Below, piece after piece: positions 20,730 through 45,595 of a DNA stretch of 64,000 nt. How positions within the stretch are numbered: the stretch's first letter is position 1; each line of letters opens with the position of its first letter. Below the pieces are notes generated by a model. It searched no databases. It worked only from the letters and a program-made list of their open reading frames with translations, and had not been told where the DNA came from. Location of the stretch: positions 3,410,001 to 3,474,000 of the forward strand of contig JAWMAR010000025.1 of the NCBI GenBank assembly GCA_036785375.1, read 5' to 3'. The DNA is from Leucoraja ocellata. Lineage: Eukaryota. A program made the translations under genes and the position numbers.

Positions 20730-21254
20730 GTATGTAAAACATCTTCAAAAACTTTGGCTATTGCTTTTCTTTCCCCTCCACTACAGCTTCTTCTTCTAGT
20801 TTTCTCTCTCGTACTCTGGCACCTCAGTCACAGCCATTTATTCCACCCTGATCTTGTGGTGTGTTTGTATTGTATTGGGATTGTTCTCACCCTGGTTGCT
20901 CTCTCTCCTTCCTCTGGTGAGGCACTACTGAAGGTGAAGAAGCGCTTCATGTCAATGCAATTAAGTCTACATGGAGCGGGAACAAAACCCAAGAACTTTA
21001 TTCCTCTTTGGGCCCCATTATTTGGAACATTTCCTTCTTCGTATCTTTTAGGCCATCTTGCTTGATGGTTTAACATGCCCAGTGCTGTTGGTGAACATAT
21101 TTACCCTTTGAATAACATACGTGTTGCAAGATTAGCTCTGTTGCTGGTGGCTGAATTATTGTCCGTTTATCCATTTATATGAATTATTCTCGTTTATCTT
21201 GAGTCTCTTGTTTTCAGTTAGTTACAGTAGACAATCCCCTATCCATGCCAATGT

Positions 21255-21750: not shown

Positions 21751-21909
21751 CATTTTGGCTTAAGATCTTATTCTGTGCAGATCAGCCGCTGCATTACACA
21801 GTATGATCCCAAACCCACTGTGGCCTGTTTTTAGAAAGGACAAATGCGACTGCAGTTTTGGATGCTCCAATTTATTTTATAACCTTCTTCTCTCTTGTTT
21901 GTATGACAG

Positions 21910-22092
21910 ACAACGAAATCCAACGCTGCAAAGCCAACTGAACCAACGAATTCCACCACTACAGAGCCAACTGAACCAATGAATTCTACACCCGAACCTA
22001 CAACTCCTAGCAACTCTGGCAGCCTGCCAACCGTGGCCAAGAGCCTGTTTCTGGGATGGGCGATGATTTTCTGTCACAGTCTACTCGGGTGA
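21910..22092 (+). CDS. Exon 2 (mucin-like peptide + GPI-anchor signal) of CD24/CD52-like gene, paralog A (78-aa precursor)
   Basis: Pyrimidine tract plus acceptor cttcttctctcttgtttgtatgacAG. In frame with exon 1: TTKSNAAKPTEPTNSTTTEPTEPMNSTPEPTTPSNSGSLPTVAKSLFLGWAMIFCHSLLG*. Small-residue omega region (S-N-S-G), spacer, hydrophobic tail ending at the stop. Confidence 0.85.
   Translation, partial: TTKSNAAKPTEPTNSTTTEPTEPMNSTPEPTTPSNSGSLPTVAKSLFLGWAMIFCHSLLG
21928..21993 (+). repeat. Coding 33-bp (11-aa) tandem repeat, 2 units
   Basis: gcaaagccaactgaaccaacgaattccaccact / acagagccaactgaaccaatgaattctacaccc = AKPTEPTNSTT / TEPTEPMNSTP. Confidence 0.9.
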
Positions 22093-23684
22093 AGCCTCCA
22101 ATCGACCGAAGGACTGGGACATTGCGGATTTCCATTAATCTCTGCAATGTTGCTATCAATAATTCATATCCAAATTAATATGCTGTATTTCTAATCTGTG
22201 ATATATCTCTGAGTAAGAATAAGATGTTATTCAGTTTAAAGAGATTGTTAAAACATACATTGATTATTGTTCTACAGGAAGTATTTCTTAAGCCACCCGT
22301 CGACTTGACCTTTAGTTTTTGGGTTTTAATGGAGATATTAAAATTCTGTGAAAAAATAATGAATAATTGAGGAATTGTAAATGGATTATTTATAGTTTGA
22401 GCAACATTCGCTTCCAGTGGAGCAACTGATAGAGCTGCAGCCTCACAACGCTGGATATGCCGGTTCGATCCTGACCACCGTTGGTGGCTGTGTAAAAATG
22501 TTGCATGTTCTCTCTGTGACCATGTGGGTTTCTTCCGGTTGCTCCAGTTTCCCCCGACACGGCAAAGACATGCGGGTTGTAAATTGCCCCTAGTGTGCCG
22601 GGAGTGTATGAGAAAGTGTGATAGCATTGGAATTCGTTTTACGGTCGGGCGTGGACTCTGTGAGCCGAAGGGCCTGTTCCCATGCTGTATCTATAAACTA
22701 AACAGGGCTGAATACCTTTACCAGCAATAACAAAGTCCATCTCATATGCAGTTCACTGTCTTTGTCACACAATAAAATGTTGAGAGGTTCATGGAATTTG
22801 AGTCCAAGTTATGGAGGCTGGAAAAATCTAGGCTTCCGAACTCAATCTTTGAGTTACCGCCATTCCTCTCAGTATTGCTTTAATAAATCCATGTATTTTG
22901 GCAAGCACAGGGCAGGAGAACAGGATGATAACTATCTCATTCTTTAATCGCAAAGTATGTGATTTGCAATTGAACTGATAGCTTTTGATTTCTCAACTAA
23001 TAAATTTGGATGGTGATTCATTTCAATTTATAGATGACGATGAAGTTGCGCAATGAGGTATAAGCTGCAATCGTGTTACGAACAGGTACCATTTTTACAG
23101 ATCCGTCCATAACTTATTTTTTGTAAAATGCACAAATATCACTCTATATGGTAACCCCACTGACACAATAGTGTAATGAATGGAATTAAAAGCCCATAAC
23201 ATTAATAAGAAAGAACAATTGTAATATATGGAGATTAATCCAGTTCTGCCATTCGTAGGGACAATTAGCCTACAGCTAATCAGTCTTTAGAATTTAGTAT
23301 TATTATTGGAGTTGGTTCACATGTATCATCCATAACCTGGGACAACCTGTTTGCTGAATGTGGGCGTTTTATTAACTCTTGCAATACACTTTCCTGGATT
23401 TATCTTCCAATGCTCCCAACTGACGTACACTTCATGTTACTTTCTTCTTCCCTTTTACAGATTCATCAATTCGGAAAATTAGGAATACAGATTATTTAGT
23501 AGACACATAGAACAGCAGATGCTGGACTACAAAATAAGATACAAAGTGCTGGGGTAAATCAGCGGGTCAGGCACATCTCTTGAGGACATCTGGTACGTGG
23601 CATTTAGGGGCCAAGTCTGAAGAAGGGTCTGAAGAAGGGTCTCGACCCAAAACGTCACACAGGAGCAAAATTAGGCACAAAATT

Positions 23685-26653
23685 AGAAACATAGAAAATA
23701 GGTGCAGGAGTAGGCCATTCGGCCCTTCAAACCTGCACCGCCATTCGATATGATCATGGCTGATCATCCAACTCAGTATCCCGTACCTGCCTTCTCTCCA
23801 TACCCCGTGATCCCTTTAGCCACAAGGGCCACATCCAACTCCCTCTTAAATATAGCCAATGAACTGGCCTCAACTACCTTCTGTGGCAGAGAATTACACA
23901 AATTCACCACTCTCTGTGTAAAAAATGATTTTCTCATCTCGGTCCTAAAAGACTCCCCTCTTATCCTTAAACTGTAACCCCTAGTTCTGGACTTCCCTGA
24001 CATCGGGAATAATCTTCCTGCATCTAGCCTGTCCAACCCCTTAAGAATTTTGTAAGTTTCAATAAGATCCCCTCTCAATCTTCTAAATTCTAGGGTATTC
24101 AAGCCGCGTCTATCCAGTCTTTCTTCATATGAAAGTCCTGCCATCCCAGGAATCAGTCTGGTGAACCTTCTCTGTACTCCCTCTATGGCAAGAATGTCTT
24201 TCCTCAGATTAGAAGACCAAAATTGTACGCAATACTCCAGGTGTGGTCTCACCAAGACCTTGTACAACTGCAGTAGAACCTCCCTGCTCTTATACTCAAA
24301 TCCTTTTGCTATGAATGCTAACATACCATTTGCATTTTTTCACTGCCTGCTGCACCTGCGTGCCTACTTTCAATGACTGGTGTACCATGTCACCCAGGTC
24401 ACGTTGCATTTCCCCTTTTCCTAGTCGGCCGCCATTCAGATAATAATCTACTTTCCTGTTTTTGCCACCAAAGTGGATAACCTCACATTTATCCACATTA
24501 TACTGCATCTGCCATGCATTTTCCCACTCACCCAACCTATCCAAGTCACCTTGCAGCCTCCTAGCATCCTCCTCATAGCTAACACTGCCCCCCAGCTTCG
24601 TGTCATCCGCAAACTTCGAGATGTTGCATTCAATTCCCTCATCCAGATCATTAATATATATTGTAAATAGCTGGGACCCCAGCACTGAGCCTTGCGGTAC
24701 CCCACTAGTCACTGCCTGCCATTCTGAAAAGGACCCGTTTACTCCTACTCTTTGCTTCCTGTCTGCCAGCCAGTTCTCTATCCCCATCAATACTGAACCC
24801 CCAATACCGTGTGCTTTAAGTTTGCAAACTAATCTCCTATGTGGGACCTTGTCGAAAGCCTTCTGAAAGTCCAGATATAACACATCCACTGGTTCTCCCT
24901 TATCCACTCTATTAGTTACATCCTTGAAAAATTCTATAAGATTCGTCAGACATGATTTACCTTTCATAAATCCATGCTGACTTTGTCCAATGAATTCACC
25001 ACTTTCCAAATGTGCTGCTATCCCATGTTTAATAACTGACTCCAGAATTTCCCCCACCACCGATGTTAGACTAACTGGTCTGTAATTCCCCGTTTTCTCT
25101 CTCCCTCCCTTTTTAAAAAGTGGGGTTACATTAGCTACCCTCCAGTCCTCAGTAACTACTCCGGAATCTAAAGAGTTTTGAAAAATTATCACTAATGCAT
25201 CCACTATTTCTGCGGCTACTTCCTTAAGTACCCTGGGATGCAACTTATCTGGTCCTGGGGATTTATCAGCCTTTAATCCATTCAATTTACCTAACACCAC
25301 TTCCCGGCTAACCTGGATTTCACTCAGTTCCTCCATCTCATTTAACCCCCATCCCTTGCTATTTCCGGCAGATTATTTATGTCTTCCTCAGTGAAGACAG
25401 AACCAAAGTAGTTATTCAATTGGTCTGCCATGTCCTTGTTCCCCAAGATCAATTCACCTGTTTCTGACTGCAAGGGATCTACATTTGTTTTAACTAATCT
25501 TTTCCTCTTCACATATCTATAAAAACCTTTGCATTCAGTTTTTATGTTCCCTGCTAGTTTTCTTAAATAATCTTTTTTCCCTTCCCTTCCCGCTGCACCA
25601 AAAAAACCCAGAATATAATAAAGGACATCTCCCACCCCGGACACTCCCTGTTTGAACTGTTGCCGTCAGGCAGACGGTACAGATCCACAAGGACAAGGAC
25701 AAATAGACTAAAAAACAGTTTTTACCCCACTGCTATAAAAGCACTAAATGTAGCCGCCAAGGAACGCAGGGGCGATACAGACTAAGGGACTGTGGTAACG
25801 GTGAAATCGACAGAAGGATGGAGGGTTGGGTGTGTATGCGTGCTTTGTCTGTGATATTTATTTATTTGCTTATCTTTATTATTTTACCGTGGATGTTTCG
25901 TTAGCTTTAGAAATGTTTGAATGCTGCACTGACTGGCTGACATTTTAAATTTCGTTGTACATGGCCCATGTTACAATGACAATAAAGAAACTATTCTAAT
26001 TAAGCCTTTTGTCCTCCTTTGCTGGACTCTGAATTTCTCCCCGTCCTCTGGCTGCTTTTTCAGGGTAATTTGTACGCTTCATCTTTTGTTTTGATACTAT
26101 CCCTGATTTCCCTTGTTATCCACGGATGCACTACCTTCCCTGATTTATTCTTTTGCCAAACTGGGATGAACAATTGTTGTAGTTCATCCATGCAGTTTTT
26201 AAATGCCTTCCATTGCATATCCACCGTCAACCCTTTAAGAATCATTTGCCAGTCTATCTTGGCCAATTCATGTCTCATACCCTCAAAGTCACCTTTCTTT
26301 AAGTTTAGGACCCTTGTTTCTGAATTAATAATGTCACTCTCCATCCTAATGAAGAACTCAACCATATTATGGTCACTCTTGCCCAAGGGGCCCCGCACAA
26401 CAAGACTGCTAACTAACCCTTCTTCATTACTCAATACCCAGTCTAGAATAGCCTGCTCTCTCGTTGGTTCCTCTATATGTAGATTGAAGTCCCCCATTAT
26501 AACTGTTTTACCTTTGTTGCGCGCATTTCTAATTTCCTGTTTGATGCCATCCCCAACTCCACTACTACTGTTAGGTGGCCTGTACACAACTCCCACTAGA
26601 GTTTTCTGCCCTTTAGTGTTTCGCACCTCTACCCATATCAATACCACATCCGC
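23685..26653 (-). mobile_element. CR1 LINE, duplicate of 2045-4680, interrupted by a Rex1/Babar insertion
   Basis: ORFs 26060-26686 (endonuclease), 24296-25336 (RT) and 23773-24324. Shares the KKCKWY frameshift with the first copy. Confidence 0.95.
25588..25998 (+). mobile_element. Rex1/Babar LINE 3' fragment, present only in this unit
   Basis: Encodes IIKDISHPGHSLFELLPSGRRYRSTRTRTNRLKNSFYPTAIKALN and ends acaataaag...ctattct. Absent at the paralogous site ~3938. Confidence 0.85.
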
Positions 26654-29054
26654 CATTCTGCCCATTGAGTTTACTCCGCCATTCAATCATGGCTGACGTA
26701 TTTATCCTTCTCACCCCATTCTGCCTTCTCCCAGTAATCTTTGACGCCCTTACTAATCAAGAACCAATGAATCTCTGCTTCAGAAATACCAACCTATCCA
26801 TGTTGTCCAGGGATGCTGCCTAGCGTAATGAGTTACTCCAGCACTTACTGTTTTTTGATAGATTATCTGGCACTGTCTGTACGCAGAACCAACATTAGAA
26901 CGATTGTCTGAAGAAGAGCCTCGACCTGAAACGTCACCTATTCCTTCGTTCCATAGGTGCTGCCTCACCCGCTGAATTTCTCCAGCATTTTTGTCTACCT
27001 TTGATTTTTCCAGCATCTGCAGTTCTTTCTTAAACAGTAGAACTATTGTAAGTCACAGGGTTTTTCATGAAAATGGGAATAATCAGAATATGCCGCAAAT
27101 ATTCAATCCCGGAAACAACTGGAGAATGAAACAGGTAATAATTTTGGTCAGTGTTATTTCATCCCTCTAGTGAATGACCATTGAGTCACACAGTAGGTAA
27201 ATAAGTCCCTCCTGTCTGTTTCACCATTGAGTCCATCTACACTAGTCACAAATCCCCCCAGGCTTTGTCGTGGTTACCGATACTCAATATTAAGTCAGGC
27301 GACGCGGAGAATTCTTCAAGAAGTTCAAACCTTTATTTGCAAATAAGGGCTGGGACACTCAAAGAGTTAATCGTTTGACTGCCCGCGTCAGACAAAGAGT
27401 TGCTTCTTGTTATGGCATGTTTAACTCTGTACATCCCACCCCCAGTATATTTCCATACCCAATCACTTGCAGACATTCCCTTATCAATAACCAATCACTC
27501 ACAGGCAAATCTCCCCTCCTGCCACAGTTATTTTCCATCTTTTAATCCATCCTTGTTTAAATCACATGACTTCTCCTATCTCGGCGACCTTATCTCTTGT
27601 TCATCCAGTGGTCACCACCAGTCACAATGATTTACACTAATCACAAAACAAGCTGCGAAAGAACACAAAAGTTTACACAAGGTTTCCAAAAACAAACTGC
27701 AAAGAATACAGAGCACAACAGTTAAAATACAAGCCGCAAAAATACAAAATTAAAATACAAAGGATATAAGGGGTTGGACAGGCTAGATGCAGGAAGATTG
27801 TTCCCGATGTTGGGGAAGTCCAGATCAAGGGGTCACAGTTTAAGGATAAGGGGAAAATCTTTTCGGACCGAGATGAGAAAAACATTTTTCATACAGAGAG
27901 TGGTGAGTCTCTGGAATTCTCTGCCGCAGAAGGTAGTTGGGGCCAGTTCATTAGCTATATTTAAGAGGGAGTTTGATGTGGCCCTTGTGGCTAAAGGGAT
28001 CAGGGTACTGAGTTGGATGATCAGCCATGATCATATTGAATGGCGGTGTAGGCTCGAAGGGCTGAATGGCCTACTCCTGCACCTATTGTCTATTGTCTAA
28101 AAGTTAAAAGTTAAAATGACTGATTTCTGTACGTCCATAGCATCCATCAACCCCTACCTCAATTCTCAATTTTCCTTCCAATCACTTATACTAAGCATGG
28201 GCGGAAATCGCTTTTAAAACATGGGGGGGACACAATGAGGCTTAACGTCTAGGACAGGGGTCGGCAACCTACGGCCGAAATCAACCAGCCTGCAGCCGGT
28301 TTTATTTCAATTAGTTTTCGCGACCTGGGTGCTACAGCCAGTTCCAGGACATGCAGGCAACCTGGGCACTACAGCCAGACCTGGGGCAGGCGAGCCGACC
28401 TGGGAACTTCAGCTAGTCCCGGGCTGCTAGATTCTAGGAGCTGGCGGCTTCCAACTGGAATCGACCTTGAGGGCTCCGGTCAGTGGGTCAGTCACACTAA
28501 CACTGTGACATTTGGTAATGACTCACTCTGTATAAATGATATCTGACTTGCCGAGTGTTTCAAGCATTTTCTGTTTCTTTTATTGCAGGGTTTCAATCAC
28601 CTGATGCAATTTTTCAACTTTACAATATTTGGGAAACATGACAAACAATAAATTAACGGTTTCGGATGAGGGAGTATAAAAACGAATACTGTTGGCAATA
28701 TTGCTTGAGGGAATAATCTCAGCTGTGTGAAGGGAAGATATATTTAAAAGATCATCAGATGAGGCTTTACCAGTTGAACTAATCTTCTTCTTCTTGCATA
28801 TGACCTGCGCAGCCTAATGTTCTTGGACAATTTGTTCTATTTGATCTATTTGTTTGTGCACGTTGGGTTGTTTGCACTAGTCGAAACAGGGTGGACCACG
28901 TGAAGGTTGCAATCTCCCACCCCAGTTGAACTAATGAAAAAAGTGTAATTACAGTTATGAAATGTTCTATAGATTGCCAAACAATCTGACAGAGCAGAGC
29001 AAATGTATCAGCAAAATTCTGAATAGGACCAAATCACTAAGGGATTAATAATGT

Positions 29055-29303
29055 TGTAGCGGACGCGGAGTTGTCCGATAAACAACGAGGCAGACACGAA
29101 GTTTGTCCGAAAATACTGTCTTTTATTGCTACACTAATTCTCCTCGCTCACCAAGTCCGTGCGTGCGCGGTTAACCCCTTAAATACTCCCCAGGGGCACC
29201 CGAGACCACGCCGTGTCCCCTACCTCTCAGCACTGGGACATTTGACCCCCCCAAGAGCTGAAGGTTATGTACAGTGCGTGGCCCACCACCCAGTGCCGCC
29301 ACA
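29055..29303. mobile_element. Solo LTR, duplicate of 7066-7314
   Basis: Same TG...CA termini and atgt/ctgt flanks. Confidence 0.8.
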
Positions 29304-30952
29304 CTGTGATAATAATATCAATTTAGACAGTAAGTGTAAAGGCATGGAGGCACAGAATTCATAAACTTCTTATCGAGTTCACATCAGAAGATTAGAATTT
29401 GTTCAGCCAGAGCTGAACACACTACTTGGCATCTGCATAAAATGGTGTCTTGTGCTTCTTGTGAGTAGTGGTGCAGAGATTGGTGGAAACAGGGCCGGGA
29501 CGTGAACGCTCTTTCCTTCACCCCAATCATAAACTGAAATAATGAGAATGTTTTCAGCGATATGTTGTAAATCCATTGAGAAGGGATGGAAGTGGATGGA
29601 ACAGGGAGGGTGGTAGAGAGGGAGAGACAAAAGGGGGCATGGGGGTAAAGGGGTCGGTTAGGGAGAAGAAAGGGGTAGATGGGGTCAGACAGGAAGGGGA
29701 AAGGAATTGCAATTCAGGGATTAGTTATGGGAATGAAGCTTGGTGTTTGGAAGAAGTAGCAGTAAGAGAGCATTGTTTCATCATATGTTTTATTTCTTCT
29801 CCGTGGATTGTCACCTTGTCGTGGTGGAGAAGCTTGTGTGGACCTCAGATCCTGAGAACAATGCCGTCTGGAGCTGTGCTCCTGTTAGGGTCACCCATGG
29901 CGGTAAGGTCGAGGGGGAGGTCTCTGACAAAGAGCAATCCTACGAAGAACCTCAACGGTGGAACAGGTGGCGGACGATGGCTGACCTTAGTGGAGCGTCA
30001 CAATGGCTGGGAAGGCGGATGAAGGCTGCCGCAGAAAAGGGTCTCTGGTCGTCTTGGTCTCCATGTCAGTGGAACCTGACCCAGAACTGCCAAGGACCGT
30101 GGGGTGTCTGTCTGTGCACCAGTCTCCCCACGTTAAATAAAGCCACACACAGGTGTCTCCATATAGGGAATAGCACCCTGGAGACACCCATGGTCAGCCA
30201 TTACCGAAGGGTGTCTAAGGTCTAAAGGTGGCTGTCAGCATTATGGATATGCTCAATTTTTTGAAGAGGTCACTAAAGACACACTTCAAATACGTACAGG
30301 TTTGTAGGGTTGCGGCTTCGGAGAGCAGTAGAGGCCGGTTCTCTGGATACATTCAAGAGAGAACTAGATAGGGCTTTTAAAGATAGCGGAGTCAGGGGAT
30401 TTGGGGTGAAGGCAGGAACGGGGTACTGATTGGGGATGATCAGCCATGATCACATTGAATGGTGGTGCTGGCCTGAAGGGCCGAATGGCCTACTCCATCA
30501 CCTATTGTCTACTGTCTATTGTCTCAATTACACGTTGCACCTGCCCGTGTTTGGTCCATATCCCACCAAAGCTGTTTCAGGTGATCATTGGCCAACCTAT
30601 CCGCACTGACCAATGATCACCTGTACACTAGTTCTATGTCCTACACACGAGAGGGCAATTTAGAGTCGCCATTTAACTTGCTAGCCTTTGGAATATGTGA
30701 GGAAAACAGAGCACGTGGAGAAATCCCACAAACTGTACATTCATTTGATCCAACAAACCCACAACGTTTTTGAATAATCCTACCTGCATATACTCATTGT
30801 CAGACACATTATACCCCACAGCCAACAACAGACCATTGTGGGCTCCAATTTTTCTTTATCATCATTACTTTATACATATCTTTGTTTCATTTATTCTATA
30901 TATCTCTTATAACCATCTATATCTTTCGTTTCCCTGTCCCCTGACTCTCAGT

Positions 30953-30980
30953 CTGAAGAAGGGTTTCGATCCGAAACGTC
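30953..30980 (+). ncRNA. Minimal hammerhead ribozyme motif (duplicate of 8964-8991)
   Basis: CTGAAGAAGGGTTTCGATCCGAAACGTC. Confidence 0.65.
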
Positions 30981-32661
30981 GCATATTCCTTTTCTCCAGA
31001 GATGCTGCCTGGCCCGCTGAATTACTCCAGCTATTTGTGTCTATTTTCCGTAAACCGCCCAAGCCTGTTTTATAATGTTTTATGTGAAAGATTGTTCATT
31101 CTTTTTTCTATAATGTAGACTTTGGTTTCAGGACAATGCTGCATGTGTGAAGCACAATGTGTCCTCTTCATTTTGGTGAGCAGAGTTAAATCTAAATCTA
31201 TCGAATTATCAGCTCTGTCCAAGGGCGTCAGCTGCGATTGAAGATTCGTCTGAAAACGCTGGGGTTAGTCCACAAAGTGGGTATGCGTTTCACGCACAGT
31301 ATATTTTGGTAAAGCTTTACAAGTTCATTATTCCAACCTCCCCTCCCCTCCCCTCCCCTCCCCATCGCCCAATCACTTCGATTTGGGTTGGTATCTGCTG
31401 AGCTCAGCTCAAGGGTTGCAAAAGGTTTTGTGGTGCTGCCGGTGTTCTGTGTCTTTTATTCATCGGGTTTGCATCAACAGCTGAGGTCCCACGATGATGA
31501 ACAGAATCTGGATCTGCGCCTTCATTTGCTGCATCGTGGCTTTTGTGAGCGTTTTGGGAGCCAAGGTACAGAAACAACAATTCAAACTTGCAGTACATGC
31601 ACTCATCAGTACGAGATGACACCGATTTGGTTCAGAACCTGAGAAATGATTCAAGATCCCAATTAAAGTGTTGCTATGTTGGAGGCATTTCCCCCCCTTT
31701 AGTTTCTGTTAATTGTCTATAAAAAATACAGATATGAAATGTGTTATATCTTTCTTTTACAGGTCCGAACAGAATTCCAATTTGTCGATCAGTTTATAGG
31801 ACTGATGGGACCTGCCCAAACTGCCGGAGCTGCAGGATTTACCCCAGCCATTGCCAAGGTCCTGATTCTGTCCCTTATTCCAGTCTTCCTGCAGAGAGTT
31901 CTGTCTTAATTCAGTGCTCGAGGTGGCCACTTCCAGCTGATTCATCCATCTCCTTGGAGACCATCCTGCTCTGCTCGCATTCAATCTCCAACTTTGAAAT
32001 GAGCCGCTTCATCTCTGCGCCACCCGTCGACCACCGACTGAGATCTGCTTCCCATTCTTCACTCCCTCTCTCTCGCAGCCTAGCCTCCAACCTATTTCCT
32101 GAAATTAATTTTGCCTGTGAAACAGCTGGAATCCACAACTTCACTGTTATCAAGGTCGGAGAAAAAAATAATTGAAAGATAACTAAAGTATTGCAGGTCA
32201 TGAAACTGGATGCCCTGCTGGAAGTTTAACATGTTCTCTTTTCATATTTTACTATTTCTATTGTTTCCGTGAGATATGTTGGCATTTCACTTAAAGCCAT
32301 GTAAAATTAGAGAGCAATAAAAAAAATTATACTGTGCCGATAAAGTGTGTCTAGTTATTAATTGTAATTCCTGCAATAAGCTTGTCTATTTTACAGCACA
32401 ACCTTAAGGCTGTGTTAACTACATCCCATCCTGAATTAATCCCAGGAAGTCTCCAATTTAAGTCAATTTTCATTATCATACACAAATCTCCTCTTCCTAT
32501 TGATAAACAGCATCTGGTGATCACTCAACATATTTGCTGGATGAATGTTATTCTCTTCTGGGACTTTCATAAAAACGTAAATGCTAGGAGCAGAATTAGG
32601 CCATTCGGCCCATAAAGTCTACTCCGCCATTCAATCATGGCTGATCTATCTCTCCCTCCTA

Positions 32662-35600
32662 ATATAATAGTAATATTAAACAAGAATTTACCAGTTTGAA
32701 GTTTGATCTTTATTTTATGAGGCGTTACGTTGAGGGACTACGTGAAGAGACCCCGTCCAGGCGTACACACGTCAATCTTCAAAGCAGTTGCGCGGAATCA
32801 CAGATGATAGTTACCGAAGCATAATAGTAAGCTACGTGAGACAAACTTAAACGTACATTTGATCTTTATGAGGGTGGGAGCGGAGGGCACGTAGTCCCTC
32901 AACGTAACTCCTCATAAAATAACGATCAAACTTCAAACTGGTAAGGTCTCGTTTAATCTTACCACTTTACTTCGGAGTCACGTGAGTGACTACGTGAAGA
33001 TTTTAAAGCTTCTGTGATTTCATGCTGTAGATTCAATCCCGGCGTCTCACTGCATCGATTGACTCTAAATGAGTGAAAACAATCAATAATATCCAACCAT
33101 TAAATTAATGTAATCTGTTACTGTTTTTTTATTATTATTTTTTTTTTATCATAACAAAACATTTTTGTCCCCTTTTTTATTGCAGGGAACATTTAATACT
33201 GAATCCAAAACAGCACCACCAAATACCCCAGGGTCTGCAATCTCTTTATGGTAATACTTGTGAGACATCCATTCACTTGCCCATCCTGCGGCCGTGAGGA
33301 TATGGTCTATTGGAACGTCCAAATCCTTGGCCGCCGATGTTGCTGCCGCCCTGGTGGAATGAGATTTAAATTTGTCAGTATTAATCCCTGCATCAACCAC
33401 ACCTTTTCCCAGTCACCTCGATATAGTCTGTACTGACACTTTCTTATGTGTTTTTTTATGGCTGATAAATAATGCTGATTCTGCACCTCTTAAGTCCTTG
33501 GTGGTCTCAATGTAACATTTTAAATGTGCCACTACACATAGTCTTGGATCCGTAGGATATGCTGCAAAGACCAATTTACACCCCGTGACTCCAGGCTGCT
33601 CTGTTTGAGTAAATCATAGACATAGAATGTAATTGCCTCTGTTGTCATTCCCATTATTTCTATATGTAATTTATGTAATGTCTGTACTCTTTGTGCTGAA
33701 TCTAATGCCATTAACATGACTACCTTCATGGGAATTTTGTCTAAAGACAAATTTGAAACAGGACTCCATTCCCGAAGTAACATCAGCACATCCCTAACAT
33801 TCCAGTATATCTGGGTCTAGGAGGTTTGGCATTGACAATTCCCTTCATGTACCTACAGACCAAAGGGTGTGATCCTAGAACCTGTTGTTCTGATGCTCTC
33901 CATAAATATACAGCGAGGGCACTCCTTGCTGTATTGATCGCACTATAACTTAAATTGACATCAAAATGCAGTGTTGACAGAACTTCTAAAACATCTAAGA
34001 TGTCAGCCGTGTGGTATGAAATATTCTGCCTTGAGCAAAACACCTCCCATTTCTTATTGTAAGAAATGTACTGCTTCTGGGTACTATCCCTCCAGGCTCC
34101 TGCAATTACATCCATAGTGCGATCTGATAGTCCTCTTCCGAGATATGGCCTTTTTAGAATCTGTAAATCAACAAATCAATACGATCATGTAAAGGATGAA
34201 AATCACCAGATACAGGGTGCACAAGTAGGTTTTCTTGTCTTGGAATACCCATAAGAGGTTCTGTGACCTTTTTTTAGCACTAGTGGGTACCTTGGTTGTG
34301 TAGGCCAATCTGGGACCACCAACAATCCTGAAGCAGCATTCTGCTTGATCTTTTGTAGACACCTACTAGTGAGGTGGAGGAAATGCATATGAAACATTCC
34401 ACCCCAATTTAGCGAGAATGCATCCACCGCTGTTGCACCTGGATCTGGCTTGCTTGAAACATATTGAGGCAATTGGTGGTTCAGTTTAGATGCAAACAAG
34501 TCAATTTCTGGCATTCCAAATTTTGCAACAATTTTATTAAAATTGTCACGATTTAACATCCATTCTGTATTGTCATTAAATTTTCATGACCTGGTGTCTG
34601 CAATTATATTGAATAGGTAGATAGCCGAAAGCCAGATGTTTTCGAATAATACACCTGTGCCAGATAACGTTTGCCAATCTGTCACAAGACTCTGACTTGA
34701 TTCCACCCATGTGATTGACATATGCTACCTGCATATGCAGATTTTGCACATTAGAGCAATAAGCTTTAAGCCCATGAAATGTACTTAACAATTCTAGGTA
34801 GTTAATTCCATGTGCTTCGAGCAAAGGTACCTCTTCCACATTCCATCTACCTCCACAACTGGTAATGGTATCAGTAGCGCCCCAACCTAGCGCACTTGCA
34901 TCGGTCTGTAGAATGATAGGAGGTGATTCAACCAGAATTTTCCTTTGCTTGCTGCAGTTGCTGATAATGCAGTGGAACGAACTACACAGCTGGGAATGAA
35001 GCGATTAGATTCCCAAGTAAGCTCACCACTTGCCTAATTGATGGTTGATGCTCTGTAATGAGTTTGCTACAACCCTCAATTGACTACAGCGGGATTTTGC
35101 GGGATTTAATATTATTTGACAGTCTCATCCATAGTCTGTTCTTACAACTGATGGGAAATAATATATAGTTAATACTATTTATTCTGCCAATGGTTGTCCC
35201 TTCAGTCTGGGACCTGAGAATTTTTGGGCCAGACCTGGTACTTTGGGCTTTATTATTGGGCTTTGGTCCTCATCTGATTCATTATCAGAATCTTCTGGAT
35301 ATTCCTCCTCATAGTGGGGTTCACCTGGTATTTTGTCTTCAGGTGTTTCCTGCGCTGGCTCTCTTATAGGCCTACGCTTAGTAAACTCTTTATCGGGTAT
35401 TCCTCTCACAGGCTCTTCATAGAAGCCATACTCTGAATGGCCCTTTTTTGGTTGCTGCTAATGCTGGATCTCCTGTAGACCAACGCCTGTATTGTCTTTC
35501 CTCAGACATTTCTGGTGCTGGCTCTCTGCTAGGCCAACACATATTATTTTCCTTAAGGCATTTCTGGCACTGGCTCACTTGTAGACCAACGTTTCCCAGG

Positions 35601-36148
35601 ACCTCTCCTGGGTGTTCCCTACGCTGGCTCTCCTGTAGGCCTACCGTAACTGTACTCCTTCTGGAGTGTGCCTTTGTAAATCATTTTTCCTATGTGGAAT
35701 TTCAATTGTGCGACCCGATCTTCCTCCGGGTCCGACTCATCCGAGTCTAATGGCCTGTTTGTTTTTCTTTTTGGCCTTACACCTTATAGGTGTTTCAACG
35801 GTACTTTATCTATAGTCGTTGTTTTCTACAGCTGATTTTTTAATGGGGCGCCCGCTACTCTCAGACACTCTGTCCTCTTGAGTTTTTAGCTGCGGTGCTC
35901 TTCCCTTTACTTTTCCCATTTTTGTCCCTATTTAGACTTGCCCGTTTGCCAGCACACAGTCTCTACGGAAGAAAAATGGCCTGAAGTGAAAGTAAAAATA
36001 CATACCTTCAGGTTTTCTTTCACTCACCGCTTGGAGCGGGCTCTGCTCCTTCCAACGTGTTCGCAGTCGCTATGCGTCTGACGATATGACGAGTGTGCGC
36101 CTGGACGGGGTCTCTTCACGTAGTCACTCACGTGACTCTGAAGTAAAA
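32662..36148 (-). mobile_element. DIRS1-type retrotransposon, duplicate of 10657-14137
   Basis: YR fragments at 33149-34115 (HSTR), RNase H and IDLFAS remnants at 34203-34910, and the same inverted termini and internal complementary region. Confidence 0.9.
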
Positions 36149-39100
36149 TTCTCCTGCCTTCTCCACAAAACCTCTGGCAGACATCTTTAGATTTTGGAGT
36201 TTAATCTCTTGGGGGTAGAAGAGTCTTGGGGATGGAGGGGATATTAAAAACAAATCATCCAAGTTCTATATTGTTTTACTGAAAGTTCAAATCAATCTAT
36301 TGAGCGGACTGGTGAGGATCTAATTGAGCTTTACAGCCACTACCCAATGAAATATTTGGTGTGACAAACAATACTTATGGCACCATCCTCGTAACTCTTC
36401 TCTGAACCCTTTCAAGCTTGACAATATCATTCCTATAACGTGGTGCCCAGAACTGAACACAATATTCTAAATGCAGTCTCACCAACATCTTATACAACTA
36501 CAATGACCTCCCAACTTCTATTATTGACATGGTAAATGTACTACACTGTGGAGAACTCTATGCAGCTTGAGCTATGGGTGAGGGGTGGGGCAATGATAGG
36601 CACAAAGTGGTCCTGAAACGGGCTGAAGATCAACTCTAGGATTCCTTGTAGAGCCAGTCCTTCTCTCTTCTACGATGATGTCAAGGAGACACCAGCCTCT
36701 CTCAATATCCAATGACCCATCTCTGGAGAATCATCTCAGTGCACCCCCAAGGACATTACAGCCAGTGATGTAAGCATATCTAACAAGTTTAATTAATTAT
36801 TGCAGGGAAAGATTTTGCACAATTACATCCCAACATCAGGACAGATGTTACTACTTTTGGGGAAACTGATTGAAAACTAAACATCAATCGCAATGCAGGA
36901 GTGAATCCTGGTGTCACAAACAACGCTATGAGATCCAGTCTCCATATTATCATCTCAGCACAATGTCTCTAACAACACAGTAATCCAACAAGATTCACCA
37001 TTGGACAATGCAGTGTCCTTAACACAGCTCTTATATCTATGCAGGGCTCCCAAAGTCCACCTCCTCCTCTAATTGTGTAATGATCCATCAGACCAATTCT
37101 CACTCATTCTTCTCTTTCCAATTAGATAACATTCCCTCCATACTTCAATAATGTGCCCCTTTAAAGTAGGCACAAAATGCTGGAGTAATTCAGCGGGACA
37201 GGCTGCATCTCTGGTGAAAAGGAATAGGTGATGTTTCGGGTCGAGACCTTTCTTCAGACACAACCCGGAACATCACCTATTCCTTTTCTCCAGAGATGCT
37301 GTCTGACCCGCTCAGTTACTCCAGCTTTTTCTGTTTATGTTCAGAGTAGTGGGCTGAAGGGCCTGTTAGTACATAACAAAGGCTTTTCACTGTACCTCGG
37401 TACAAGTGACAGTAAACTAAACTAACTAACTGATTTCCATGCTGTAGTTCTAAACTGAAAACTAAACTATAGATCCTACAACACTGCTGTATTCTCATGG
37501 GAAATGCATTTGGTCTGCAGGGTTATCTCGTCACACTTCCTCAGTACAGCACTGAGATGGTCAATGTAGACCATTTGCTGACTCTCTGGAGTGGAACTTT
37601 AGCAGCTCTTTGCTTTCAGTTGCAATAATGTTTTCCACTGCGTCAATCTGTCTTTAAAGTAAAAATAAAGGCAAACAAAATGTTAACAGGAAGCACAGCT
37701 TTGTGAACAGGATCTACAGTCTATTGCAAGAGTTCCATTGGCTGAAACACAGCTGCTTCTTGAAATAGGGACAACGACAGATGCAAGACTCGTAAAGCAA
37801 CATCTACAGTTCCCTGTGTCTTTATATTCTCCCGACAATGTATTTGCTATTCACTGTAACAGATGCAGATTCAGGAATTTAACCATGTAGTGTTTTTGAG
37901 GGAGTCACACCAGTGCACTGCTAGAGTTCTGATGCGGACACCCGATGATCACTTTTAGTTTAGTTTAGTTTAGAGATACGGTGTGGAAACAGGCCCTTCG
38001 GCCCACCGAGTCGATGCCGACCAACGATCCCCGCACTATTGTACACACACACTAGGGACAATTTACAATTTTTACCATTGCCAATTAACCTATAAACCTG
38101 CACGTCTTTGGATTGTGCGAGGAAACCGGAGCATCCGGAGAAAACACACGCAGGTCACGGGGAGAACGTACATACCCCATACAGACAGCGCCCGTAGCCA
38201 GGATCGAACTTGGTTCTCTGGCGATGTAAGGCACCAACTCTACCGCTGCTCCACCCATGGTCCACTTCATGGTCCCGAGCTATTGAAGTGTTAAAGCATC
38301 ACAAGCAAGCTCTGGGTTGATCAATGTAACCCAAGTACTGAATTGTAAATTAGTATTTTCAAGTCAAAGGTCGATTTACCTCTTTTTTGGAAACTGCAGA
38401 ATTTTTTTTTTTAACTGAAACATTTAAAAAATATTGTAATCATCTGTAATGAAACAACATTTTTTGACAGATTGACTCAGTGGAAAACATGAGGGGGCGG
38501 GGTGGGGGGCAGGGGGGCAGGGTGAAGAGAAGAAAGCTGGGAAAGGGAGAGGTAGTTGAAAGCCTCTCAGATAAAAGGTCGACATAGGTGACGGGGATGT
38601 TTTTGACAGGCATATTGTTGCAACAAAGGCCAGAGATAAGAGCAATAGGTAGGGTTGAAGAGTTGCAGATTGTGACGCCTGGAATGTAGCAGGAGCGGGG
38701 GGGAGTGGAGGGGAGAATTAGATGGAGGTCCAGGCGGAACGAGCTGCCAGATGATATTGTTGAGACAGGTGATATTGCAACATATAAGAAACATTTAGAC
38801 AGGTACATGGATAGGTCAGATTTAGAAGGAATGTGGACCAAACGCAGATAGGTGGGACTAGTGTAGATGGGACATGTATGCCCGTGTGGACAAGTTGTGC
38901 CGTAGGGTCTGTTCCCATTGCTGCAAGACTCTATGACTCCAGGTGGGGCCCTGGGGAGTTGGGGGGGGGGGGGGGGAGGGGTGAAGGGTGGTGAGGGACG
39001 TGGGGAGAGGGTGCAAGAAGAGAGTGTGTTCTCTGTCTACTCACCTTTGGTAATCATCCTATCCCACTCCGCCAACTCAAAGTCCAAAGGTTCCTCATGA

Positions 39101-40497
39101 CCTTCTGTACACATTTTCTCCGTGTGAATGTGGCATCCTTTCTCAGACGGCAGGGACTGTTATTGCTGCTTGAGAACGCTAGGTGGTGATTTAGCACCAC
39201 ATCAAGATCAGAATGGTTGTGACGTTGGGGGAAGAAAGGCATTTTATTGACTAACGATCGTAATGGAAAATCAATGTTACAAAGGTTTCCTTTGGTCAAG
39301 GGCGAGTCAACTTTTGCATTCCAGAGTGTTCAATATATTTCGTATTCAAGATGGACTTCTGATCTCACACTTCCTCCATGATGAGAACTCTTTATAATCA
39401 CTCTGCCTGTGGCTCAGGTTACCCCCAACACTCATTCACAAAATATTACCTTTAAGCAGTTACACCAATGCTGTCCCAGCCAGTCTTTCACCATTTTCGA
39501 TTAAGCCAATTAATTCAAAATGTTGGTAAGTTTGTCATGATGTGGTGGCACAATGTTGAATTTTGGCCAATATTGTTCCTGTGCTGCACTTAGGGATGCA
39601 TTAGTACATTAAACTATATACAATTAAATCTCTGTCAAATAACAGATGTGTTACACAACTAATAATCTGCAAATAACAATGGGAAAGAAACACTTTACTT
39701 GTAGAAGGTGCTTGTTCCAATTGGGTGGAGAAGTTCCCGTTGGAAGATAATAACAATTGTTTAAATCTAAAGATTTCTAATCAACGCATTCTATTTCCCT
39801 TCTAATTGTTGCGAATGTTTCGGTCAACACAACTCTAAAGCCAATTGCTACATGGCTATGATTTCATGGTAATTCAAAAGATTTTCTCCAGTCCATTTCA
39901 GAAAAAGAAAGTCACAATTTCTAGACACACTCAGGACCCATGAATGTAAATTATATTATAATGTGGCCTATTCTTCTCATCAATACTTATCCCTCCCATA
40001 ATAATCATTGCCCTAGATGGACCAAGCCGGGCTTTGACCAAGTGTGGCATCAAGGAGCCCTGGTATAATTGGCATTCAAATGAAAGAAAGGAGGTTGTGA
40101 TTGTTGGAGGTCAGTCATCCAAGCCAGGATACCACTGAAGAGTTCCTCAGGTCACTGTCCTATGTCTAATCGTCCTTTATTGTTTCACCAAGGGCTTTGC
40201 TCAATGAGGCACCGTCTGGAAATACAGACATTATGGTGATCTGGGAAGCACAATGTCTAATTTGTGCACTGCACAATCCCAGAAAACATTACTTAATAGC
40301 AACTAAATCTGTTTTGTGGGATTTTTTTTCACCCAGAGTTGTGAATCTGTGGGCAGTGGAGGCCAATTCACTGGATGTTTTCAAGAGAGAGTTCTTAGGC
40401 CTCTAGGACTACCAGAATCAAGGGATATGGGGAGAAAGCAGGATTTTGATATTGATTTTGGATGATCAGCCATGATCATATTGAATGATGGTGCTGG

Positions 40498-41620
40498 CGG
40501 TGGGGAGAAGAAAGGAGAAAGGAAGAGGAGGAGCCAGAGGGCTGAGGGAGAGCTGAGAAAGGGAGGAGACAGCAAGGGCTACCGGAAATTGGGGAAGTCA
40601 ATGTTCATGCCGCTAGGCGCTGCTCCTCCAATTTCCGGTGGTGCTCACTTGGGCCATGGAGGAGGCCGAGGACAGAAATGTCGGATTCGGAATGGGAGGG
40701 GGAGTTGAAGTGCTGAGCCACAGGGAGATCAGGTTTGTTAATGTGGACTGAGCGGAGGTGTTCGGCGAAACGATCGCCAAGCCTACACTTGGTCTCGCCA
40801 ATGTAGATCAGCTGACATCTAGAGCAGCGGTTGCAATAGATGAGGTTGGAGGAGGTGCAGGTGAACCTCTGTCACACCTGCAACGACTGCTTGGATCCTT
40901 GAATGGCGTCGATGGGGAAGGTAAAGCGACAAGTGTAGCATCTCTTGCGGTTGCAAGGGAAAGTGCCCGGGGAGGGGGTGGTGCCGGAGGGGAGGGAAGA
41001 ATTGTCCAGGGAGTTACGGGGGGAACGGTCTTTGCGGAAAGCAGACGGGGGAGATGGGAAGATGTGGCGGGTGGTGGGGCCACGTTGGAGGTGGCGAAAA
41101 TGACGGAGGACTATTTGTTGTATGTGACGGCTAGTGGGGTGAAAGGTGAGGACTGGGGGGACGCTGCCTTTGTTATGATTGGGAGAATGGAGAGAGAGAG
41201 CAGTGTTACGGGGTATTGAAGAGACCCTGGTGAGAGCCTCATCTATAATAGTGGAAGGGAACCCCCCGTTCCCTGAAGAATTAGGACATTTCCGATGCCC
41301 TGCTGTGGAACACCTCATCCTGGGAGCACATGCAGCGTAAACGGAGGAATTGGGAGTAGGGGATGGACCCTTACAGGAAGCAGGGTGGGAAGAAGTGTAG
41401 TCTGGGTAGCCATGGGAGTCAGTGGGTTTGTAGTGGATGTCGGTCAGAAGTCTATCACCTGCGATGGAGATAGTGAGGTCAAGAAATGGTATGGAAGTGT
41501 CGGAAATGGTTCATGTGTAATTGAGTGTCGGATGGAAGTTAGTGGTGAAGCGGATGAAGTCAGTGAGTTGTGTGCGGGTGCAGGAGGTAGCACCAATGCA
41601 ATCGTCGATGTAGCGGAGGC
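40498..41620 (-). mobile_element. Penelope-like element fragment, duplicate of 18553-19700
   Basis: ORF 40872-41318 (VLTFHP...CNRKRCYTC) followed by a GIY-YIG remnant. Confidence 0.85.
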
Positions 41621-42593
41621 ACCTTCGATTTTCCAGCATCTGCAGTTCCTTCTTAAACAATAATTCAGTATAGTTTATTGTCTGTGTAGCGAGGTTCAGT
41701 GAAAAGCTTTTGTTGTGTGCTAACGAGCCAGCAGAAAGAAATACATCACTACAATCAAGTCATCCACAGTGTGCAACTACACGATAATGGATCAGAGTTT
41801 AAGTAAGAAATGTTGCTGTAGGAGTAGATTTGAAATGTGGATTGATTGTAATATGGGATTGCAGATCTGCTTCTGTGGCTAGCATGCAAGTAGTTGCCTG
41901 GGTTGGGCGCCATCTTGGAAGCGTCCATATTTACCTTGTACAAGTGGCTGTTTCCTATATCACTGACACCAGTTCAGACTGAAAAATTCAGGCTCCACTA
42001 TCCCACGTTTTGTTCATTACAGGAAAAAGGTCTGCCATCTCTGCATAATGCAGGGTTAGGTAAGTGGAAAGAGATACCAGCAACTGTAGATGCTGCTTTT
42101 CAATAAATGACACAAAGTACTGGTGTAACTCAGCGGCTCAGGCAGCATCACTGGAGAACATGGATCGGTGACATGTTGTAGATTGATTGTGGGGGAAGGG
42201 GGGTGGAAGGTGGAAGAGAGGAGGGGCAGGACAAAGTCAGGCAGGCACAGGTGAGGGGTGGGGGTGGTTTCCATAAATAGATGGTTGGACAAAGGCCAGA
42301 GATGAAAAGACAAAAAGATGTGAGATGTGGATAGATGAGGTGTGAATTGTGAAGCAAGACTGTTAGCTGTTAACTTTGTGGATTTGGACTAGGAAGGATT
42401 CAAGGCAGGCATCCAATCAAGTATTAACATTCAATCTGATAAAGCAAAGAATTATAATTCGTTTAGCCCTGTCAATCATTAACCTGTGAGGTTCGTCATC
42501 CTACAAGAGAGCAACATTGTGATTAATTGCGCGCAACAGTGAAGTACCAGAGTCAAAGCCAGCAGCAGCCTTGTGCAAAAACAAAAGAACCAA

Positions 42594-42647
42594 ATGAAGA
42601 CGTTTATACTCAGCCTGTGTTGTCTCGTCCTGGTGCTGCTGACAATG
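42594..42647 (+). CDS. Exon 1 (signal peptide) of CD24/CD52-like gene, paralog B
   Basis: Identical to 20676-20729. Donor GTATGT at 42648. Confidence 0.85.
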
Positions 42648-43842
42648 GTATGTAAAACATCTTCAAAAACTTTGGCTATTGCTTTTCTTTCCCCTCCACT
42701 ACAGCTTCTTCTTCTAGTTTTCTCTCTCGTACTCTGGCACCTCAGTCGCAGCCATTTATTCCACCCTGATCTTGTGGTGTGTTTGTATTGTATTGGGATT
42801 GTTCTCACCCTGAGCGAAACTCACCCTGGTTGCTCTCTCTCCTTCCTCTGGTGAGGCACTACTGAAGGTGAAGAAGCGCTTCATGTCAATGCAATTAAGT
42901 CTACATGGAGCGGGAACAAAACCCAAGAACTTTATTCCTCTTGGGGCCCCATTATTTGGAACATTTCCTTCTTCGTATCTTTTAGGCCATCTTGCTTGAT
43001 GGTTTAACATGCCCAGTGCTGTTGGTGAACATATTTACCCTTTGAATAACATACGCGTTGCAAGATTAGCTCTGTTGCTGGTGGCTGAATTATTGTCCGT
43101 TTATCCATTGATATGAATTATTCTCGTTTATCTTGAGTCTCTTGTTTTCAGTTAGTTACAGTAGACAATCCCCTATCCATGCCAATGTTTTACCCTTTAA
43201 CAACGAGTAAAGAGGCTGCAGAGAGTGATGGGCTCAGCCTGGTTCATCACAGGCACAGGCACAGCCCTTCTGACCATCGGAGGGATCTACACGGGCTGCT
43301 ACTTCAAGAATTTGGCATCTATTATCAAGAATCCCCACCAGCTGGGGAATTCCTTCTTCTCGCTGCTACCATTGGGCAGGAGGTACTGAAGCCTGAAGAC
43401 CCACACCACCAGGTCCAGGAATAGTTAATTTCCTTTTACCATCAGGTTCTTGATCTGACCTCACTCAACCCTAATCCAACCTCAGTAACTGTGCATTACG
43501 CACTACCTCTAGCACCACCACGGACTAGTTGTGGTTTGCACTAATGTCTTGTCTTTGTGCAGTCTTTTTATTTTTCTCTATCTTGCAGAATGTGTATAAC
43601 TTTATGTTTTTGCATGTTGTCTATGTGTCCCCGATGCTGATTTTCATTGCATTTATACACCATACTGGTGTAAACGGCAAATACATTTTGGCTTAAGATC
43701 TTATTCTGTGCAGATCAGCCGCTGCATTACATAGTGTGATCCCAATCCCACTGTGGCCTGTTTTTAGAAAGGACGAATGCGACTGCAGTTTAGGATGCTC
43801 CAATTTATTTTATAACCTGCTTCTCTCTTGTTTGTATGACAG

Positions 43843-44136
43843 GCACCGAAATCCAACGCTGCACAGTCAAATAATGCACTGAAACCCAACTCTACAAATT
43901 CAACTGAAGCAACGAATTCCACCACTACAAAGCCAACTGAAGCACCGAAAACCACCGCTATAAAGCCAACTGAAAAACCGAAACCCACCGTTACAAAGCC
44001 AACTGAAAAACCGAAACCTAGCCAGACATCCAAACCCGAACCTACAACTCCTAGCAACTCTGGCAGCCTGCCAACCGTGGCCAAGAGCCTGTTTCTGGGA
44101 TGGGCGATGATTTTCTGTCACAGTCTACTCGGGTGA
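43843..44136 (+). CDS. Exon 2 of CD24/CD52-like gene, paralog B (115-aa precursor)
   Basis: Acceptor ...ttctctcttgtttgtatgacAG. Reads APKSNAAQSNNALKPNSTNSTEATNSTTTKPTEAPKTTAIKPTEKPKPTVTKPTEKPKPSQTSKPEPTTPSNSGSLPTVAKSLFLGWAMIFCHSLLG*. The frame is preserved despite being 111 nt longer than paralog A. Confidence 0.85.
   Translation, partial: APKSNAAQSNNALKPNSTNSTEATNSTTTKPTEAPKTTAIKPTEKPKPTVTKPTEKPKPSQTSKPEPTTPSNSGSLPTVAKSLFLGWAMIFCHSLLG
43861..44025 (+). repeat. Coding 33-bp (11-aa) tandem repeat, 5 diverged units
   Basis: AQSNNALKPNS / TNSTEATNSTT / TKPTEAPKTTA / IKPTEKPKPTV / TKPTEKPKPSQ. Confidence 0.9.
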
Positions 44137-45053
44137 AGCCTCCAATCGACCGAAGGACTGGGATATTGCGGATTTCCATTAATCTCTGCAATGTTGCTAT
44201 CAATAAATCAAATTAATATGCTGTAATTCTAATCTGTGATATATCTCTGAGTAAGAATAAGATGTTATTCAGTTTAAAGAGATTGTTAAAACATACATTG
44301 ATTATTGTTCTACAGGAAGTATTTCTTAAGCCACCCGTCGACTTGATCTTTAGTTTTTGGGTTTTAATGGAGATATTAAAATTCTGTGAAAAAATAATGA
44401 ATAATTGAGGAATTGTAAATGGATTATTTATAGTTTGAGCAACATTCGCTTCCAGTGGAGCAACTGATAGAGCTGCAGCCTCACAACGCTGGATATGCCG
44501 GTTCGATCCTGACCACCGTTGGTGGCTGTGTAAAAATGTTGCATGTTCTCTCTGTGACCACGTGGGTTTCTTCCGGTTGCTCCAGTTTCCCCCGACACGG
44601 CAAAGACATGCGGGTTGTAAATTGCCCCTAGTGTGTCGGGAGTGTATGAGAAAGTGTGATAGCATTGGAATTCGTTTTATGGTCGGGCGTGGACTCTGTG
44701 GGCCGAAGGGCCTGTTCCCATGCTGTATCTATAAACTAAACAGGGCTGAATACCTTTACCAGCAATAACAAAGTCCTTCTCATATGCAGTTCACTGTCTT
44801 TGTCACACAATAAAATGTTGAGAGGTTCATGGAATTTGAGTCCAAGTTATGGAGGCTGGAAAAATCTAGGCTTCCGAACTCAATCTTTGAGTTACCGGCA
44901 TTCCTCTCAGTATTGCTTTAATAAATCCATGTATTTTGGCGAGCACAGGGCAGGAGAACAGGATGATAACTATCTCATTCTTTAATCGCTATGTATTTGA
45001 TTTGTACTTGAACTAAGAGCTTTTGATTTCTCAACTAATAAATTTGGATGGTG

Positions 45054-45595
45054 TTTGGCGGACGCAAGAACGACAACTAAGTTTTGTAACTTATTTTATT
45101 CACAAAATAGATTCTTAGCTCACAGGTTCTTACAGCGCGTCTGGCCACGACGGTGGTCCGCACACAACTGGCGAGCGAAAGCAAAACCGCGCGAAAACTA
45201 GCAGCCCCTCCCGAGTCACATGACCGCGGCTTCAGAACACCGGGCTTGATACCTGCGTGCGTCAGCAGGCGTCACCACATGGCCCACCCAGAATCCGCGG
45301 TACGGAAACGCACGGGCAACGGACGGTTCGACCGCAACACGTAGTCCGAGATTGCGGGGCGAGCGTAACAGTAGGGGCCAGCAAAACAGAACCGGAAGGG
45401 CGCGACAAACGCGAACAAGGGACGGGCGTAACAGAGGGGACCGGTGAAACATAACTGGGGGTAACAGGTGCAGAGGGCGGCCAAAACGGGCAGTGGACGT
45501 CCTTTACGCCGCGAAGTGACCACCGCCACCGGGCTATCCTCATTGACGTGTGCTGGCTTAAGGCGGCTGACAGAGACAAACTCCTCCTTGCCACC
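45054..45595. mobile_element. CpG-rich solo-LTR-like element
   Basis: Begins tttggcggacgc (compare tgtagcggacgc of the 7066 LTR) and ends ...ttgccac. Has a minus-strand AATAAA near the left end. Absent from the other units. Confidence 0.55.

Follow-up and report, generated by a model that had tools for sequence, protein, structure and literature searches.

CD52 has a first coding exon of 54 nt, lies head to head with UBXN11 and encodes a 25-residue pro-peptide, all as in the gene described here; CD24 lies in a block with CRYBG1, QRSL1 and BEND3; and in MUC1, PSGL-1 and GPIb-alpha, which are large transmembrane proteins, in-frame alleles of a coding variable number tandem repeat (VNTR) set the length of an O-glycosylated stalk. 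Human CD52 is a GPI-anchored glycopeptide of 12 residues, with sialylated N- and O-glycans that bind HMGB1 and Siglec-10 (PMC11982460), and it occurs on lymphocytes and is acquired by sperm (PMC3382607; PMC9630641). The human gene has two exons, the second of which encodes signal residues 21-24 and the mature peptide (PMC9684181), and in cattle the gene order is described as ZNF683, CRYBG2, CD52, UBXN11, SH3BGRL3, CEP85 (PMC12587522). CD52 has been described as common to mammals (PMC11662153); it escapes similarity searches even between mouse and human, and the mouse gene, Cd52, was at one time classed as de novo in origin (PMC6239577, PMC11662153). CD24 is a small, heavily glycosylated GPI-anchored peptide and a ligand of Siglec-10 (PMC9630641). 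We found no report of CD52 in cartilaginous fish, nor of a homolog in any other fish or non-mammal, in the open-access literature, and the main text of a single-cell paper on the bamboo shark (PMC11372145) contains no mention of it.

Here, we analyzed a 64-kb window (the whole stretch of DNA under study) of the skate Leucoraja ocellata containing two copies, A and B, of a gene that very probably encodes a real GPI-type glycopeptide. Our best overall explanation, to which we give a probability of roughly 0.6, is that this gene is the skate ortholog of CD52, i.e., a GPI-anchored glycopeptide of the CD52/CD24 type, which is variable in repeat number and probably in copy number, and whose repeat units have probably been under selection.

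Structure of the gene and its predicted product

The window consists mostly of a 22-kb tandem duplication, with the remainder made up of debris of LINEs and other retroelements. Self-BLAST matched positions 387-3939 with 22025-25587, 4499-18506 with 26472-40498, 18576-21989 with 40496-43922, and 21911-23018 with 43943-45056, and identity across the duplicated unit is about 97.5% (range 96-97.5%). The features of the locus are as follows:

387-45056, + strand: tandem duplication with a period of about 22 kb, in the order stump, spacer, A, spacer, B (self-BLAST)
387-460, + strand: truncated stump, the last ~70 nt of exon 2 plus 3′ flank, 88% identical with a 6-nt insertion, without exon 1 and without the repeat
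20676-20729, + strand: copy A, exon 1 coding sequence, 54 nt, same sequence as B
20730-21909, + strand: copy A, intron, 1180 nt, GT..AG, phase 0
21910-21990, + strand: copy A, repeat array, two full units plus 5 codons, two N-S-T sequons, acidic
21991-22092, + strand: copy A, tail and GPI signal, same sequence as B
42506-42593, + strand: copy B, 5′ untranslated part of exon 1, transcribed (exon-joining contig, run X2 record 9; the true start may differ)
42594-42647, + strand: copy B, exon 1 coding sequence, 54 nt, signal peptide residues 1-18 (by hydropathy; joined to exon 2 in X2)
42648-43842, + strand: copy B, intron, 1195 nt, GT..AG, phase 0, absent from the X2 record 9 contig
43843-44034, + strand: copy B, coding 33-bp repeat array, five full units plus 9 codons
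44035-44136, + strand: copy B, invariant tail with polar linker, predicted 25-residue GPI signal and stop (pattern as in PMC10491789)
44202-44207, + strand: AATAAA, 66 nt past the stop of copy B, missing at the corresponding place in A

The stretch first singled out, positions 43843-44136, is exactly exon 2 of copy B. The initial annotation compared A and B, and its description of them is borne out: their exon 1 coding sequences show no difference in 54 nt, the 3′ ends of their coding sequences are identical (over 103 nt in fact, not 102), and their introns are nearly so, with 14 substitutions in 1179 aligned nt and two indels. Its counts of two units in A and five in B are right for full 33-nt units, to which the partial units of 5 and 9 codons are to be added. 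The N-S-T sequons likewise number two in A and three in B, and, if the signal is cut after residue 24 or 25 and the GPI pro-peptide has 25 residues, the charged residues come to 1 K and 4 E in A and 10 K and 5 E in B. The difference in length between the copies does keep the reading frame, but at 111 nt it is not a whole number of units.

Hydropathy shows that the A and B precursors have a hydrophobic start, a polar middle of Ser, Thr, Pro, Asn, Lys and Glu, and a hydrophobic end. Under the −3/−1 rule for signal peptide cleavage, the cut would fall after S-N-A, at about residue 24, and the first 6-7 codons of the copy B array probably encode the end of the signal peptide, the cleavage site being placed by this rule; three N-S-T sequons and then K/P/T-rich units follow. 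The precursors show the pattern of a GPI-anchored protein (assigned by rule rather than by a trained predictor), with an N-terminal signal, a small omega site, a polar spacer, a hydrophobic tail and no cytoplasmic part. An N-S-G motif is located 25 residues from the C-terminal end, and this motif and the tail fit the described order of omega, omega+1, omega+2, spacer, and hydrophobic tail (PMC10491789), with the N at 44056-44058 the likely omega residue of copy B. If a GPI anchor takes the place of the final 25 residues, as predicted, the mature peptide would have about 29 residues in A, 66 in B and 88 in a copy C that lies outside the window.

The peptide is expected to be disordered. We propose an unstructured surface peptide with two or three N-glycans near its tip and an O-glycosylated stalk, which, by analogy with CD52, would be a scaffold displaying sialylated glycans on leukocytes or sperm, where it could act as a charge coat and as a ligand of inhibitory lectins. 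Although the units of B and C are rich in lysine, the surface need not be basic, as sialylated O-glycans could more than offset their charge. The stalk would change in length, with the frame kept, when the 33-bp unit undergoes slippage or unequal crossing-over. The likeness to MUC1, PSGL-1 and GPIb-alpha lies in this predicted effect of in-frame repeat number on an O-glycosylated stalk, but in the skate gene almost all of the mature peptide consists of the repeat, and the predicted anchor is of the GPI type.

Downstream of the coding sequence, at about 22158-22170, copy A has a 6-nt longer, stump-like sequence without the AATAAA of B. Since this proximal signal is lacking, the 3′ UTR of A may be longer than that of B.

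Gene neighborhood and relation to CD52

The skate gene resembles CD52 in lying beside UBXN11, with SH3BGRL3 beyond, in having two exons, with an intron that interrupts the signal peptide and with exon 2 encoding the mature peptide, and in having a GPI signal and a Ser/Thr-rich mature peptide that is predicted here to be N-glycosylated; 22 unplaced 5′ letters of a transcript contig leave an extra non-coding exon possible. It differs from CD52 in that its sequence has no detectable similarity to it, in a mature peptide predicted at about 29-88 residues, i.e., 2-7 times the length of the human one, in two or three sequons compared to one N-glycan in human (PMC11982460, PMC3382607), in a peptide built from 33-bp units, in a gene that is duplicated and probably copy-number variable, and in the position of CRYBG2, which is adjacent in mammals and about 540 kb off in the skate.

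On the contig that holds the window (C25), UBXN11 exons are located at 3.227-3.262 Mb on the minus strand, with the 5′ end facing the skate gene and the nearest exon found about 53 kb from it. A UBXN11 exon there is 97% identical to skate UBXN11, and 89% or less to that of other rays and sharks. Between UBXN11 and the skate gene, an exon scan recognized only retroelement frames and the stump. SH3BGRL3 is tail to tail with UBXN11 on a duplicate contig (C3381) that spans a gap at 3.216 Mb, and none of 10 SH3BGR matches falls on C25, the gene being located on this duplicate. DHDDS-type exons lie at 2.31 Mb of C25, and a multi-domain crystallin gene with a ricin-like exon, which by its likeness and by gene order we take to be CRYBG2, lies at 3.99-4.01 Mb, so that CRYBG2 is not the other direct neighbor. 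In the elephant shark, ubxn11, sh3bgrl3 and cep85 are described as shifted to the upstream (prep) side of znf683 (PMC7662092). A prolyl-oligopeptidase (PREP-like) exon (L051; C25:3622070-3622292, minus strand) is on the same contig as UBXN11 in the skate, which agrees with that arrangement. A chondrichthyan breakpoint separates the skate gene from CRYBG2, and only one flank is conserved as a result.

A strict scan of 630 kb for frames like exon 2 gave six matches, four of them from A, B and C, and the other two being a single minus-strand frame that is present twice and lacks a partner exon; exon pairs of CD52-like layout occurred only with exon 2 of A, B or C. There was no second CD52-like candidate in 140 kb on the CRYBG2 side. 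The Pfam CD52 profile (PF15116) did not match the exon 2 peptides, and its eight weak matches genome-wide include none on C25; the best Pfam match to the two exon 2 peptides was only DUF4501 (E = 0.064), and the CD24 profile (PF14984) matched neither these peptides nor the locus in a genome-wide search. Of 25 candidates in one indexed homolog search, none reached E ≤ 0.01, and a second search gave no candidate, with exon 2 rather than the spliced precursor as the query, which lowers sensitivity. A HMMER library search returned one match, to a 3655-residue repetitive protein, which we took to be a match of composition.

These results can be read against orthology. Skates or batoids could have gained a mucin-like GPI glycopeptide gene near UBXN11 independently of CD52, either formed there or brought in, or the gene could be a CD24 that has moved. 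No similarity to CD52 was found, and there is no homolog in the shark and ray proteomes of a database that does contain their UBXN11; insertions gather in this region, with a PSAT1-like copy 30-35 kb downstream. For a moved CD24, copy A has CD24 as its third Atlas match at 0.80 (all matches are 0.85 or below, and this is the only named eukaryotic one, a lead only), and in 170 kb, with two gaps, around the QRSL1-type exons on contig C72, no CD24-like gene was seen, none of 18 loose exon 2 candidates being convincing. Mature CD24 is also close in length to the predicted product of A. The QRSL1/BEND3 block is on C72 and not at the skate gene. What speaks against an independent or moved gene is the agreement with CD52 in position, in the two-exon layout and in an intron located within the signal peptide. 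That no profile matches is weak evidence, since CD52 diverges so fast that similarity is lost between mouse and human (PMC6239577, PMC11662153) and since PF15116 is built from mammals. We consider an independent or moved gene unlikely and orthology to CD52 likely, on the basis of position and layout. As a profile match, a short mature peptide and a CRYBG2 flank are absent, membership is unproven, and we use the name CD52-like.

Two other gene groups were observed during these searches. A PSAT1-like gene (L027; C25:3352182-3354684, minus strand) has a second copy at C25:3485603-3488107, about 12 kb past the end of the window, with four open exons at both places; in both, the lysine of the A-Q-K-N motif, the PLP-binding residue, is a methionine, and the copy is possibly a catalytically dead paralog. 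On C72, at 7.37-7.53 Mb and 8.41-8.50 Mb, about ten long open frames (686-769 codons), each with several BEN domains, lie near QRSL1-type exons, and we read these as an expanded BEND3-like family, consisting partly of assembly duplicates.

Copies, haplotypes and transcripts

A search of the whole 3.44-Gb assembly identified three copies that are intact and two that are 3′ stumps; all five protein matches fall on C25, and no processed copy turned up elsewhere. The proposed modular surface glycopeptide family has the layout of a GPI glycopeptide, but it is not a broad family, being confined to one locus. The third intact copy, C (C25:3315541-3317149), is 137 kb upstream and equals B with two near-identical extra units, for a total of seven.

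A 112-kb block holding a stump and C stops 23 nt before an N gap (block end C25:3382237; gap 3382260-3382460), and recurs just after the gap (from 3382805) with the stump, A and B. Over 76,239 aligned nt, the two blocks differ at 851 (1.1%). We are fairly confident that C is the other allele of B, with the two blocks probably being two haplotypes, one with C alone and the other with A and B. Copy A is then probably on one haplotype only, probably with only one or two intact genes per haplotype, and one unequal crossover could have added the extra 22-kb unit with A on some haplotypes. A true segmental duplication, in which C is a third paralog and every chromosome carries C, A and B, would suit the location of both blocks in one scaffold and their difference of 1.1%, which is high for allelic difference in many elasmobranchs. 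Against it, the block boundary sits at the N gap, an unplaced duplicate contig of the neighboring UBXN11 region differs by a similar 1.4%, and many genes occur twice in the assembly at equal scores, all of which makes such a duplication quite improbable. Contig depth in run X5, which is a weak measure and not a copy number, points the same way: depth was 14 for the A-type contig, 35 for the B/C-type contig and 48-50 for shared parts, compared to a median of about 43 in 12 rows with a single contig at other loci. These values are better explained by about three copies in a diploid genome than by six.

The assembly seems to retain both haplotypes at many loci, including in tandem across gaps (C25:3270692-3382237 and 3382805-3515662; C3381; C1269/C66; C19/C32), and paralog counts taken from it are inflated for this reason. 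The B/C contig of X5 ends at 43991, where the repeated stretch of the seven-unit form would break an assembly at k=31. In run X6, from another sample, two contigs cover 43842-43981: one equals B, and the other (record 29), a single contig with a depth of 5.5, has 13 differences in 140 nt and no gap, and is unlike A, B and C. Among the assembled copies, only B and C match this interval exactly, and the next nearest has at least 28 mismatches. A further sequence variant probably exists, as judged from this one contig.

The B-type gene is transcribed and spliced, with runs X1 and X2, two of the four compared out of six listed and both from a single study, presumed to be RNA. In X2, a 304-nt contig (record 9, depth 9.9) covers 42506-42646 and, in directly adjoining positions of the record, 43842-43982, so that the intron is left out at its GT..AG ends; one letter is different, and the exon 2 part equals B. 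In X1 a contig is identical to B over 43929-44114. A lack of expression of B had been named as grounds for rejecting the original proposal, and this spliced contig, from a presumed RNA run, speaks for expression. The 22 letters at the 5′ end of the X2 contig, before 42506, match nothing in the genome, and may be adapter, an artifact or an unassembled upstream exon. Most of the intron is without cover in X6, which is not diagnostic of the type of run.

No spliced A-type contig was present among the contigs listed. Copy A might be a silent or decaying by-product of duplication, with only the B/C locus of importance, and its missing proximal AATAAA and the reduction of an older copy to a stump would agree with this. 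Yet A keeps its frame, both splice sites, its promoter region (98.4% over 2 kb) and a full GPI signal, all four changes in its two full units are replacements, and an A-type contig is present in X5; we regard decay of A as less likely than not.

Divergence and possible selection in the repeat

That A and B diverge almost only in the ectodomain holds with a qualification: the repeat is more diverged, but the excess extends beyond the coding sequence into the intron. In their flanks and intron, A and B differ at 64 of 4065 nt (1.6%), and with so little divergence around them it is unremarkable that exon 1 and the tail are identical, as no difference in these 156 nt is within chance (P = 0.086) and is what a young duplication would leave. 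Recent duplication or conversion explains the identical signal and GPI parts. In the repeat region, 66 nt contain four differences (P = 0.02); when the partial unit of A is included, 81 nt contain 7-8, the number varying with the pairing of units (P < 0.001). Six of the 14 intron differences fall in the last 111 nt (permutation p = 0.009). Since the peak covers both the repeat and this end of the intron, it suggests an older island of divergence around the repeat, with flanks homogenized by conversion.

The repeat units were said to differ mostly by amino acid-changing substitutions, and this we confirm. The eight distinct full units require a minimum of 21 replacement steps and no silent ones, where 27-37% silent would be expected (binomial p 0.0001-0.0015); without the first unit of B, the counts are 17 and 0 (p 0.0004-0.005). 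Counting the partial units, of which there are two, gives 22 replacement and three silent steps (binomial p 0.007-0.075), the last 5 codons of the partial unit of B being excluded as unalignable. Simulations of neutral arrays gave 6-8 silent steps, with a probability of 0.0009 or lower for none, and, with partial units, of up to 0.024 for three or fewer silent of about 25. A/C transversions make up seven of the 21 unit changes, and may reflect a copying process outside the model. Frameshifting repeat alleles, which would have spoken against a selected peptide, were not seen: all three assembled arrays are in frame.

The same gene could carry a repeat that is neutral apart from staying polar and in frame, with length and charge as by-products of minisatellite turnover, and with the A-B island left by gene conversion that homogenized the flanks. 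The non-significant identity of exon 1 and tail, the reach of the divergence peak 111 nt into the intron, the borderline silent deficit once partial units are counted (p up to 0.075) and the difference of C from B by only two near-identical extra units all suit such a repeat. It would not readily give 0 silent of 21 changes in full units, where neutral simulations and those restricted to mucin-type residues gave 6-8, and if composition were constrained, the share of silent changes would go up rather than down. We see neutral turnover as a real, though lesser, possibility. The replacement excess among units is real but small, resting on 21-25 non-independent changes in a region chosen because it looked odd, and the claim of diversifying selection stands to the extent of this excess over neutral expectation. 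For positive selection on the units, we put the chances as even; replacement changes, if favored, would most simply reflect escape from binding by pathogens or antibodies, or tuning of glycan spacing.

The kind of protein described here is already known, as are coding VNTRs, which are common in mucin stalks. What is new is that CD52 is likely to be of deep origin and that its form varies in repeats and copies. At its broadest, the reading would be that CD52 dates from the jawed-vertebrate ancestor and that in skates it is hypervariable, with haplotypes that diversifying selection has made different in how many genes and repeats they carry and in the sequence of the repeats, so that lymphocyte or sperm coats differ between individuals, a proposal that we hold only tentatively. 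The skate case shows a gene placed by position and layout where similarity searches fail. Whereas mammalian CD52 is a lymphocyte and sperm coat gene, the skate gene differs in its variable copy number and repeat length, and its natural alleles, with differing stalk length, sequon number and charge, could be used to test whether the peptide or only the glycans it carries matter. If the gene is truly the skate ortholog, it would date a glycan-display checkpoint back to the beginnings of adaptive immunity, and would be a candidate surface marker for leukocytes or sperm of elasmobranchs, in which markers are scarce.
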